A stretch of 64,000 nt of DNA from Octopus sinensis (Eukaryota), in contig NC_043001.1 of NCBI RefSeq assembly GCF_006345805.1, forward strand, positions 104,408,001-104,472,000, given 5' to 3'. This document shows, piece by piece, positions 1 to 62,800 of this stretch. Within the stretch, counting starts at the first letter, position 1, and each line of letters opens with the position of its first letter. Position numbers: made by a program.

Positions 1-3000
1 TAAACAAGCCATGTTGATGGTACTTGCAAACCTGCAGACACTATAGAGAACTAGTAATGCTCCTTGGTAAAAATGCTATGTCAAAGATTACTGGTACTTT
101 TCAAATATCACTGGGCTAAAAGTTCTCAAGAACAGAGCACTTAATTTGTTGCCATTGGTATCCAGAGATTCCTTGAAGAATGTCATCAATTTACCCTGCT
201 ACTAGTTCGTTAGTTCTCTATAAATTACCAATGTAAAAATTCCACCAGTTGCATTATTCAACAGGTGGGTAGCTGTGAGCATTTGACAACATTCCTGATG
301 CCAGGCACTAACTACTGGATGCAGTTTAAAATCATACGCAGAATTTTTAGTTAGATATGAGATTGTATCAAAATATTCATGGACTAGTTCTGCAGTATGC
401 CAACAGATGGCAACACATGACTGCATGCACAGTGACAGCCAGCAATGACTTTTATGAGGCAGTGTGCCAAGTGACATTGCTGTGTTTTCCTCACAAGTTG
501 TGAAAATTGTGTTTTTGTGATCATGCGTATGTTGTAGTCTGCAATTTTTGTCAGGGACAGGAAGTTGGCACAAAGAGCTAATGTGAAATTTTGTGTTGAA
601 CTTGGGAAGTCTGCTACAGAGACTTACAGTGATGGCAAGCTTACAGTGATGGTGAAACAGGCCATGCGCAATGTTTCAAGTGGCACAAGCACTTCTGAAG
701 GGATGACAGAGCTACATCTCAATCAAGAGCATGTTCATCATTTTGTTGATATATATGGTATTGTGCATTGAGAATTTGTCCACCAGGGCTGGACCATTGA
801 GAGTTCTACTGCAACATTTTGAAGCATTTGAGGGAGAACACTTCACACAAGAAACTGGATCAGTAGAGCGTTAAGAATTGGATCCTTCACGACGACAATG
901 CACCCTGTCACTGAGCTCTCCTCACTCGTGTGTGTCCCACCAAAAATTGCTTCTACACCTGCCCCATTGACCAGATTTAGCACCTATGGACTTTATCTCT
1001 TCCCCAAGATGAAAATGCAGGTCAAAGGTCACCGTTTTTGAGATCAAGAGCGAGTTGCAGAAGGTCCTCAAGTTGTTAATGGAAAACGACTTCCAGACTG
1101 GATTCCAAAAGTGGTAGGAATGCTGGGATCAGTGTACTGCAGTGCAAGTTGACTATTTTGAAGAAGGTGATGTTAAAACTTTGGTAAATAAGTTATATTT
1201 TATTAAACATAACTAGTCTGGGAACTCTTTGACACCACCTTGAAAATAGAAATATAATGGTGTAATAAGCTAAAGTAGGACTTACTGAAGTGGAAATACT
1301 GAATATACAATTCATTATCTCTTACATCAACCTTGCTAGGGATTCTCTTGCTATTTTCTGCTTATACATCCTTATATCATTATCATTTATACATCAATGT
1401 CTTCTCATTTAATTAAGAATAAAAATGAAATTTAAAAAAGAAGTTATGAAATTATTTACTTAGCTTCTCTTTTGAGAATACCGTTTGGAAGGTTACGTAT
1501 CTCCTCTGCAAAGTCTCTATATTCCTAGAAAAGTTTACAATAAAAACATTTGTTGTAAATTTATGATAAAAGTTTTGTTTAGGTGTTCAAATTGATGTGG
1601 GCTGGTGTGTGGGGCGAGTTGTGGAGATGAGGAATGAAAATATGTTTCTTGGATTGTGTGAAGTAACTGAACAACACCCACAAACATTTAATAGAAGATT
1701 TTATTGTCACACATTAAGTCAAAACTATGTTAGTCTTTTCCAGATAACAACAGTAATAATTACATATTGGGAGAAAGATACTGCTCAGAGTTTATGGCAA
1801 GCCATTGATACAGTAACATGTGGCTTGCCCAACATAACAAGAAACAATTATGCTATATCCATAGTGACAGAGGTTCCTGCCATCTGATGTGATAAGAATA
1901 GAGACACATCTCACTCAGCTGTGTCAACATTCTGCAATTAATTACTGCTAAAAGAAGCCTTTTTATAAGGCTCAGATTAGCTTCATGCTCTTGCTTGATG
2001 GAGCTGGGGTAATTCCAAGTTAGTGGTCTCAGGGGTGTTATCATGCATACAGCTGTCCAGGTCCACTAGTGCTCTCCATTGTTGGTAGTCCTGTGTATCC
2101 TCTAGGGTGATGTCAAGCCTCTAGAGATCTTCCCCAGTCACATCCAGCCATCTTGTGCGGGGCCTGCCACAAGGCCTCTTCCAGCCCACAGTTGTTGTGT
2201 CAAATGAGACTAAAGCTCTGATAGGATGATCTAGTGGGAGATGGAGGACATGTCTGTACCAGTGCATACAATGGATAGCTATGAGGAGAGAGGCTGCAGA
2301 CTAATGCATGCACACATGCAGTTCTTTGCTGTATATGTGATGGTACCATCAGATGTTCTCAATGGTTCTCAGGGCTCTGCAACTAGAGCTGTTGATCCTA
2401 TTTGCTAGGGTCTTTGAGAGAGGCCACATTTCTGCTTCATAGAGGGGAGTGGAGAGAAGACAGAATCACGTAATGACTTGACAGTAATTGGTTGCTTAAT
2501 AGATCAATCATGTGAAATAATTATGATTCAGTCATAGTGTCTGACTGGGTATCCAGAAATTTGGTTTCAAATCCCTGGCAGAAAAAAAAAGCAATGAGTT
2601 GACATTAATAGTTCTATTTTCGATTGCTTTGGACTATTCAATGAAAGTAAACATTATCTAACTTACAGAAACACTTCAGTTGTTTTGCTTCTTGATGTCC
2701 ATAATAACACCAAGTGTGGCATGTTAGATTCAAAAGAAGACAGGGAAGGAATACAAAAATAATTCCAGAATGTATTGTTTCAAACAACTATGTGGGTTAC
2801 GAAAACTAAAATAATCATTTTCAACATTAACTGGCACTTTGTTGGTAATAATAAGGGTTCCAGTTGATCTGATCAATGGAAACAGCCTGGTTGTGAAATT
2901 AATGTGCAAGTGGCTGAGCACTCCACAGCCACGTGTACCCTTATCGTAGTTCTCAGGGAGATTGAGCATGACACAGAATGTGACAAGGCTGGCCCTTTAA

Positions 3001-59800: not shown

Positions 59801-62800
59801 TATTAAAAGTTGCATAACCAGGACTACATCACAGTCTTCTCATGATTCAAAGTCAAAATCAAAATTAAGCAGAATGTAATATAATCACTTACTTGGCTTC
59901 GACAAGTCCAAAACCTTCACTGACTACCCTTCTAAAATCTTCATATTCCTAGAAAAGGTAACAAAAAAAGCATTTGTAGTAACTAAAAACAATGATTTGA
60001 CATTAATAATTCTATTTTGGACTGGTTTCGACTCTTCAATGAAACAAAACATTACCTTATTCACAGAAACACTTTAAAAAAAGCAAATCCTTTTGTCTAT
60101 AAATGTTAACCTCCAGTAAAGAGCTGAAATCATTGACTGATGGGGGATATTACCTAAATTGAGAAGTGATACACTAAAGGGATGTGACATAATACTACAA
60201 GGCATTTCATCTTGCACTGTCAACTGATTTTGATATTCCTTTCTTAAAAAAAGATTCTATGCTGTTACTAAAAGATAGCAGCAAATATCTCCCTTAAATC
60301 TTGCAAAAAACTAAAAGATGTGGCTGTGTGGTAAGTCTATTAGTTATTTATTATATGTTGTCTTCTGAGACATGAAAAGATGAAAAAGCTATGTTGACCT
60401 AAGCATGATTTTGAACTCATAAATTCAAGAAAGGTGTTATGCTGTTGTGTGATTGCTTCATCGACTATCATCTTTAAAATGTACATAAGTTTTGCAAAAG
60501 GGGTGGGTTAGTTTCCTTTTTCATTTGGTAGAGCTGTTTGTTGTTTGACCTCAACATCTGAAGGAATAAACAAATGGATGGAGAGGAAACTGTTGATTTG
60601 GTCCAAATGCATGAAGGTGAGAGAATTCATGCTAAAGGCACCCAAGAAGCAGATGGGGGTGTTAAACTGGGTGGCATGTAAAGCCTGTAGCCAGTTTCCT
60701 GATAAAGCAAAGAGGAGTTTGATGAAAACCAAACAGCTATCCATCTTAAGTCCATCTTGTGTCCATATGAATGAAAATAATGAGCTGTAGATTGGAAAGG
60801 AAATCACCATCATCATAGTTTTACCATCCACATTTTATAGCTTTCATAGATCTAGCAGAATTCATTCACATAGATATTTTTTCATTGTAAGGATTTAACA
60901 TGTTTGTTTGGTCTTTAGACTCCCATGGAAAGACAATTGGAGCTAAACAAAAATAAGTGTAATAGTAAAAACAACAGCCAAAAAAATAACAATCAATGCT
61001 GCTGCTGAAGCTACTGGTGGTGCGAGTGCCACTGCTGCTGCTACACCCCACCCCACCAATTTTTTTAAAAAAAAGAGGACCCTAGTAATTCACCTTCAAA
61101 AACAAAACAATGATAAATCTTAACATGACTGTTAAGGGCTCTGGCTTGAGATAAAACAGATGAGAGATACCAAGCCTGTGGTTAAGGTGCTTGTCTGTTT
61201 CAACTCACAGAGCTACACAAACTCAATATGCTGCCTTGTACAAAATAAATAAATATTAAGAACTTACATTGCTATCTCCACAATATTTTTCTGCTAGATT
61301 TCTGTAAAAGAAATAAAGGAATACACTTCATCATGACTACCATCATTAACATCATGATCATGATCATCATTTTTATATCTCTAGACAAAGAAAAACATCA
61401 TAAAATTATAACTTTATGTACAACTTCATCTTCAGACATGAATTCTCTTTTAATATTGGAACCTACATATGGACTTCATTTCAATTACTTCAATTTCTGA
61501 ACCATATTACATGTTTTATTCCTGGCTTAATGCATGGTTCCATACCATTAATATTTTAGCAAATATTTACAAATATTGGTTTCAAATTTTGGCACAAGGC
61601 CGGCAATGACAACTAGTACTTATTTTATCAAACCTGAAACGAAGGAAGGCAAAGGTGACCTTGGTGAGATATGAACTCAGAATGTGAAGATGGACAAAAT
61701 GCCGCTAAGCACTTTGCCTGGCATAGTAACGATTCTACCAGCTCACCACCATAGCAAACACAGAAATATTGAACTGATGTCACTACTTGCCTTACTAATT
61801 GCATTATTGGTAAGACGTATATGTCCTGATACTTTGATTCTCATGAGTTTCCCACTTTGGAATTACGAAATCTTCATTCCATAGCATTATATTAATTCAT
61901 TTCTCACTCCATATGTATTAAAATGTTTATTCTATCATTAAGGCTTTTCAATATTCTTCCATCCCAACCTTTAGAACCTCACAGTGTTTCATGTACAAGG
62001 CCCTCCATAAATGCACGGCATGTTATAAATGCAGTTTTAATGTTCCAAATGAAACAATGCAGATGGAGAAGTATAAAAAAACATTTTCATCTCAAAAGAT
62101 GAAGTTAATAATCTGAAAAATTCATAATCACATCTGCAATAACCCATTTCAGGTATTTACAAGAGTGTAATAGGTGCTTTTGCAAGCCACCAGAACGGCT
62201 GCCATTTATGCAACACTGGAGTGCATTTATGTGCCAATTTGCATGATACCGGTGTTTGCCACGACTGTGATTTTTCTCGGATTGCTCAAACACAACATAA
62301 GGCCAAAGGTCTTGGACATACCTTTATCTGATCAGGATAAAATATTGTGATTGACTTGAGGTGCATGTAGGGCCAAGAACTAACCTCACAGAGTCTGAAG
62401 TCATAGAAGTGATTAAAGCACTCAAACGTTGCAAGACAGAAGAAATGGGTGAAATTTCACCTGAGATGTTAAGAAAATTAAAAAGAGAAGGTATTCTCAG
62501 GTTGATTTGTGTATAACAGGTGGCATGGACTTCTGAAAGGACACCAAAACAATGGCAATTTGGGGTGATGATCCCAATTTTTAAAAAAGGGAGAGAAAAT
62601 TGAAGGAAACAAATGTTTGGACTAGGAATTCCTTGCTTTGTATATGTATTATTCCTTGTTTCTGTTCTGGGTTGATATAAAAACTATGAAAGTTACATGA
62701 CTAGGAATTATTCAAATTGAAATAGTAGTAGTAGTAGTAGTAGTAGTAGTAATAGTAGGCATGGTGGTGCAGCATCTGTGTTGGCTGTACAGACCCACAT

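Follow-up and report, generated by a model that had tools for sequence, protein, structure and literature searches.

A minus-strand array of alternating micro-exons in Octopus sinensis probably encodes a helical repeat protein whose paralogous exons differ more than the introns between them

The 64,000-nt stretch of Octopus sinensis DNA analyzed here (contig NC_043001.1 of assembly GCF_006345805.1, positions 104,408,001 to 104,472,000 of the forward strand; hereafter the window, with all coordinates given as window positions) carries on its minus strand, from 61301 to 1460, an array of 18 very short exons. Nine exons of exactly 34 nt (the S exons, S1 to S9) alternate strictly with nine longer exons (the B exons, which from B1 to B9 measure 56, 59, 65, 59, 65, 62, 65, 62, and 65 nt), and the introns that separate them range from 730 to 11387 nt. 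Each of the 18 exons is bordered by an AG acceptor, preceded by a long pyrimidine tract, and by a GT donor. The first base of each S exon is position 3 of a codon interrupted by the intron, and the exon ends at a codon boundary (phase 2 in, 0 out); each B exon starts at a codon boundary, and its last two bases belong to an interrupted codon (phase 0 in, 2 out). No single exon has a length that is a multiple of three (0/18), so that the frame is preserved by pairs only, one S+B pair being 90–99 nt and encoding a unit of 30, 31, 32, or 33 residues. The exons are 62% purine and their flanks are T-rich. The donors differ by class, with GTTAGT in seven of the nine S exons and GTAAGT (five) or GTAAAT (four) in the B exons. 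The stop-to-stop frames that enclose single exons span 19–56 codons, and the exons are therefore not visible in a list of open reading frames (ORFs) of 60 amino acids (aa). A search of 1–1459 and 61302–64000 for more repeat exons found none, which indicates that the gene continues past both ends of the window.

Four exon classes can be distinguished, each with intron flanks of its own; we term them Sa, Ba, Sb, and Bb, and they follow each other in that order 4.5 times. Class Sa is composed of S1 (61268..61301, with AG/GT borders, 11 open codons, and flanks homologous to those of the other four members), S3 (43624..43657), S5 (32304..32337), S7 (21944..21977), and S9 (4035..4068), and the distance from one Sa exon to the next is 10.4–17.9 kb. 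Class Ba is composed of B1 (59893..59948), B3 (41935..41999), B5 (30658..30722), B7 (20970..21034, in which the first codon, GTG, encodes Val), and B9 (1460..1524), the final repeat exon within the window. Class Sb includes S2 (58187..58220), S4 (40839..40872), S6 (28291..28324), and S8 (20206..20239), the last having the flanks least similar to those of the other Sb copies, and class Bb includes B2 (54680..54738), B4 (37933..37991), B6 (24414..24475), and B8 (15456..15517).

Several lines of evidence support the assignment of these exons as coding sequence. With a relaxed motif scan, nine S and nine B exons are recovered from the minus strand, the plus strand yields no match of either kind, and the same scan applied to 100 shuffles of the window returns one S and 57 B matches altogether. 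The 864 nt of exon sequence comprise 279 whole codons plus a further 8 that span exon junctions (the latter read singly), and none of these codons is a stop. Over the 279 codons, the other two frames contain 12 and 37 stops and the three frames of the opposite strand 10, 14, and 5. When each exon is shuffled, the mean number of stops is 24.6 and none of 20,000 shuffles is open; when the observed differences in 12 derived exons are placed at random, the mean is 11.0 stops, and again none of 20,000 runs is open. The frame thus stays open despite approximately 40% nucleotide divergence between exon copies. The exon alignments contain gap runs of 3, 3, and 9 nt only, whereas just 14 of 78 gap runs in the flanks are multiples of three. 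Given the absence of stops relative to these controls and the in-frame gaps, we conclude that the frame is held by selection and that the exons are coding. A chance origin of the open exon array is excluded, and on its sequence features the array is very probably a real gene. These results bear out much of a first-pass annotation of the window, which had proposed 18 alternating micro-exons (all recovered here, on the minus strand) with 36 canonical splice sites, 287 stop-free codons, and length variation in threes, as well as their absence from a six-frame ORF track, a functional coding array extending outside the window, and transposon-filled introns. In agreement with the last of these claims, the introns of 11.0 and 11.4 kb, the longest in the array, contain ORFs of long interspersed nuclear element (LINE)-type elements with reverse-transcriptase and endonuclease domains.

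Self-comparison of the window reveals colinear, same-strand homology between the introns of different cassettes, in stretches of 200–1660 nt with 72–95% identity, and the locus is therefore built of tandem copies of one cassette of four exons. The nearest relatives within this array form a mosaic: B3 of cassette 2 is closest to B7 of cassette 4, S4 of the same cassette as B3 is closest to S6 of cassette 3, and intron sequence at 41364–41753 is 95.4% identical to that at 59436–59825 in cassette 1. Such mosaic relationships point to recombination or gene conversion between cassettes. The gene has therefore grown by tandem duplication, with later recombination, of a four-exon cassette that measured roughly 10 kb, and LINE insertions have lengthened the cassette since then. 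Different parts of one cassette were also observed to be nearest to different cassettes at 92–95% identity, for example, 27857–28485 compared with 40405–41028. Two candidates for additional exon sequence were rejected: a weak likeness at 63009–63120 to the region downstream of the B exons, which adjoins a short interspersed nuclear element (SINE)-like insertion and is AT-rich and was therefore not counted as a relic of an exon, and an identity dip upstream of B3 (42181–42142), which consists of scattered substitutions with no splice-like borders.

The most interesting property of the locus is a hyperdivergence that is confined to the exons and set between near-identical introns; this contrast, the cassette structure, and the intron homology were all absent from the first-pass annotation. 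Exon bodies are only approximately 55–70% identical between cassettes, in contrast to the 72–95% identity of the intervening introns over hundreds of bases. Across 32 within-class paralogue pairs, pooled identity is 58% for the exons compared with 77% and 76% for the 150-nt flanks on the two sides, and both flanks exceed the exon in identity in 28 of these pairs. The contrast is sharply bounded in alignments, with the drop in identity beginning at the first exon base and ending a few bases before the donor. When B3 and B7 are compared in 40-nt windows, the exon core matches at 22/40 positions and the ungapped intron windows at 35–40/40 for approximately 300 nt on each side (three gapped intron windows range from 16/18 to 38/38). 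Similarly, the exon window of S4 and S6 matches at 28/40 positions, compared with 38–39/40 in the ungapped downstream intron and 34/36 to 38/40 in the gapped upstream intron. We compared exon differences with those in 250 + 250 nt of flank by Fisher tests for six close pairs. The contrast is significant for B3/B7 (23/65 exon vs. 34/498 flank bases, p = 1.8e-9), S4/S6 (12/34 vs. 60/483, p = 9.5e-4), B2/B4 (p = 2.2e-4), S1/S3 (p = 0.007), and B4/B6 (p = 0.007), and pooling five independent pairs yields 88/226 exon differences compared with 406/2351 flank differences (p = 3e-13). Among the 73 codons of the five pairs, 51 differ in the encoded residue, 3 differ synonymously only, and 19 are identical.

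The spectrum of these differences was also recorded. On the coding strand, 39 of the 88 exon differences in the five closest pairs are A/G exchanges and 10 are C/T exchanges, compared with 36 and 28, respectively, of 103 differences in nine of the ten flanks (Fisher p = 0.0099 for the exon–flank contrast). Lys/Glu/Arg/Gly and Asn/Asp exchanges within purine-rich codons could account for the skew; alternatively, it could be linked to adenosine-to-inosine (A-to-I) editing, possibly through edits that became fixed in the genomic sequence.

The encoded units share a small set of recurrent positions. In the S exons these are Leu (7/9), [AV] (9/9), [EK] (8/9), [YH] (9/9), [FCL] (9/9), and [GK] (8/9), and in the B exons Tyr at position 2 (9/9), [DE] at position 4 (6/9), [FL] at position 5 (9/9), [LIVM] at position 9 (9/9), and Pro (5/9). 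The consensus put forward in the first-pass annotation is therefore approximately correct, with the Tyr of the B exons invariant and Pro in little more than half of the units, and its description of a tandem-repeat protein agrees with the 30–33-residue unit. The 279 pooled residues are rich in Glu (13%), Lys (12%), Tyr (8.6%), and Phe (6.5%) and include no Trp, five Pro, and four Cys. At 100 degrees, the B exons have, over their first 12 residues, a hydrophobic moment of 0.481 (0.295 after shuffling, with none of 5000 shuffles reaching the observed value), and the S exons have one of 0.359 (0.276 after shuffling, with 135 of 5000 reaching the observed value); neither class has an excess at 170 degrees, that is, no beta periodicity. 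This amphipathic periodicity in both exon classes favors the helical character that had been suggested for the protein. The sequence pattern would be consistent with a helix–turn–helix–loop unit in which the S exon encodes a short amphipathic helix, followed by a turn, a longer amphipathic helix encoded by the first part of the B exon, and then a variable-length loop, predicted to begin at the Pro in five of the nine units. The working model that we consider most likely is a scaffold of stacked α-helical repeats in which variable surface residues are putative partner-binding positions.

Taken together, these features lead us to favor, as the probable explanation, that the array represents a central segment of a spliced, protein-coding minus-strand gene, grown by cassette duplication, with selection for differing repeats on a putatively helical scaffold. 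Neutral exons cannot outpace their own introns in divergence and the exons contain neither stops nor frameshifts; selection for differing residues is thus the simplest reading. Such selection would favor or preserve different amino acids in each repeat, and a few scaffold positions, aromatic or aliphatic, would be retained together with the splice signals.

Several observations weigh against this explanation and temper our confidence in it. The exon is less alike than only one flank in one of the 32 pairs and than neither flank in three, including all three that involve S8, and among the six close pairs the contrast is nonsignificant for S5/S7 (p = 0.25), where the upstream homology breaks off. 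The proportions of nonsynonymous and synonymous differences (pN 0.41, pS 0.32) are such that the ratio of nonsynonymous to synonymous rates (dN/dS) alone is no proof of positive selection; codons with a single difference include 27 replacement and 3 synonymous changes (p = 0.13 relative to the site ratio), and differences at the three codon positions number 34, 30, and 22 (p = 0.27), although these classical tests are weak given the few sites. The identities of exons and flanks show no correlation (Spearman 0.25, p = 0.17), which argues against recent duplication followed by steady, fast exon change. This lack of correlation fits either a quick saturation of the free positions or homogenization of the introns by gene conversion, both of which require selection on exon diversity. 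Family searches also offered no support: hidden Markov model (HMM) profiles built separately from the B set and the S set (nine exons each) retrieved best matches among PDB sequences with E = 0.31 and E = 0.084, respectively, and a search of Pfam (E up to 10) and NCBIfam with the six of 18 exons that encode 20–21 residues (the other 12 encoding fewer than 20) gave no match, the queries being short and of little power.

The role of gene conversion can be taken further, to an explanation that we consider possible but on balance improbable, in which the exons are old and under ordinary purifying selection, gene conversion or unequal crossing-over homogenizes the introns, and converted exons are purged, so that the repeats would have diverged long ago, no part of the gene would be evolving rapidly, and the contrast would reflect concerted evolution confined to the introns. 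The mosaic relationships of B3 with B7, of S4 with S6, and of the intron segments in different cassettes are in accord with this process, as is the absence of a correlation between exon and flank identity, and the introns of HLA class I genes are reportedly homogenized between diverged exons in a parallel manner. However, the conversion tracts would have to end at both splice sites of many exons. In addition, pS (0.32–0.42) is unsaturated and not above pN, unlike what is found in old paralogues under purifying selection, and a synonymous difference is present in just 3 of the 22 codons with an unchanged residue, part of which AT-biased codon use could explain.

It is conceivable, if somewhat doubtful, that the gene encodes a member of a known repeat family (e.g., TPR-like, annexin-like, or nebulin-like), is probably already annotated, and looks unrecognized solely because pieces the size of an exon cannot be matched: queries of 11–21 residues have almost no search power, and a unit of 30–33 residues with a two-helix pattern is within the range of common α-helical repeats. 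The profile searches against the PDB, in which the score sums over repeats, nonetheless returned nothing below E = 0.08, and literature searches found no paper on this gene and, in full text, none carrying any of four exon peptides. In comparison with the TPR consensus, the units resemble TPRs in their two predicted amphipathic helices, in an aromatic residue four positions after the small residue of helix 1, and in a frequent Pro after helix 2, and they differ in their length, which is not 34 residues. At the helix-packing positions, where TPRs have small residues, the pattern is mixed, with A/V after the Leu of helix 1 (9/9) and bulky F/L and L/Y in the second helix, where the consensus has Ala. 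Nebulin is encoded with one exon of approximately 105 nt per repeat, has a unit of approximately 35 residues with an SDxxYK motif, and contains super-repeats that arose from tandem-duplicated exon groups. The present gene is of a similar type in having units in the approximate range of 30–35 residues and exon groups that act as a super-repeat, tandem-duplicated within the gene, but it has two exons per repeat, no SD..YK in the exon alignments, and no Pfam match (a weak test with short queries). The contrast between exon and intron divergence is not known as a feature of nebulin.

That contrast has its closest parallel in the conotoxin genes of cone snails, in which introns are conserved and one exon class accumulates point changes and trinucleotide indels (PMC3862624). 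In the octopus array, too, similarity is far greater among the introns than among the exons, and the exon indels are of 3, 3, and 9 nt. Conotoxins, however, are small secreted peptides encoded by separate genes of two or three exons and have a cysteine framework, whereas here 18 exons lie inside one gene with a repeat architecture, the four Cys among 279 residues occupy no fixed positions, and no signal peptide is known; we imply no toxin role. A similar exon/intron contrast occurs in the genes for sperm lysin in abalone and for venom in snakes, which are likewise small and separate and not intragenic repeats. The architecture, in turn, recalls the micro-exon genes (MEGs) of Schistosoma, which are described as having very short exons (3–81 bp), mostly multiples of three and singly skippable, with regular long introns, and as being poorly traced by automatic annotation (PMC10526429), and elsewhere as trematode-specific, secreted, and disordered (PMC10399815). 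Relative to these descriptions, the octopus gene is similar in its exons of 34–65 nt and introns of 730–11387 nt and different in that none of its 18 exons is a multiple of three and in that its sequence pattern suggests helical repeats.

The modular structure raises the question of isoforms. In-frame S+B modules would let the repeat number change by duplication or by cassette skipping, and an extension of the selection-based explanation, which we regard as unlikely, is that S+B modules or whole cassettes are skipped or combined, yielding isoforms with different sets of repeats. Every S+B or B+S pair is 90–99 nt and preserves the frame when skipped, 34-nt exons with mostly GTTAGT donors (7/9) are weak on their own, and the strongly conserved intron flanks could contain splicing control elements. 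Schistosome MEGs, which are described as secreted and variable, make use of alternative splicing. Constitutive use, however, would be just as compatible with the strong polypyrimidine tracts and the high purine content of the exons, and the interleaved Sa-Ba-Sb-Bb order is unlike the Dscam type, in which mutually exclusive exons are arranged in clusters. We are yet more cautious in speculating that the product is a recognition protein whose helical modules are each diversified by positive selection at nearly all non-scaffold residues between near-identical introns, with combinatorial isoforms as a possibility, a proposal that we consider quite doubtful; it would amount to exon hyperdivergence in the style of conotoxins or gamete-recognition proteins, multiplied inside one gene. 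Finally, a dead or never-expressed segmental duplication whose exon-like pieces are relics or chance features is highly improbable, for although a LINE lies approximately 40 nt upstream of the acceptor of B8, neutral change would be expected to introduce approximately 11 stops where none is seen and left no frame open in 20,000 simulations, the exon indels are solely multiples of three, the splice dinucleotides are intact at 36/36 sites, and neutral exons could not outpace their own introns in divergence.

If the array is spliced as we read it, it would be a clear natural example of a gene made purely of micro-exons and invisible to ORF-based scans, of a repeat protein enlarged by duplication of a multi-exon cassette, and of selection contrasting so strongly between exons and introns that an alignment of paralogues suffices to reveal the exon borders. 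Sharp identity dips between duplicated introns would then be a practical means of finding more hidden micro-exons. Should the divergence be adaptive, the protein would be a candidate recognition molecule in immune, gamete, or prey/host interaction, from an animal genome with poor annotation.

The mobile elements of the introns include the LINE copy next to B8 (15564–18586, plus strand), which is antisense to the gene and contains ORFs at 15600–17291 and 17310–18026 with endonuclease and reverse-transcriptase domains. The intron sequence interrupted by this copy has homologous counterparts upstream of B4 and B6; another copy, at 5389–7444, shares 92.9% identity with the one next to B8 over 2074 nt. 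The intron between B8 and S9 contains an unbroken ORF of 1066 aa on the minus strand (10473–13673) with endonuclease, reverse-transcriptase, and PHD-like matches, which may be an intact non-long-terminal-repeat (non-LTR) retrotransposon; fragments related to this element are present at 47708–49687 (plus strand) and 51081–52366. Seven further ORFs of 123–151 aa matched no Pfam families, and a search of the whole window against Rfam gave no matches. A repeat block at 7450–10389 is composed of (AT)n (7450–8170), 6.4 copies of a 67-nt unit (8335–8766), and 2.8 copies of a 159-nt unit (9937–10389), and adjoins SINE-like copies that recur at 50393–50959 and 63087–63291.

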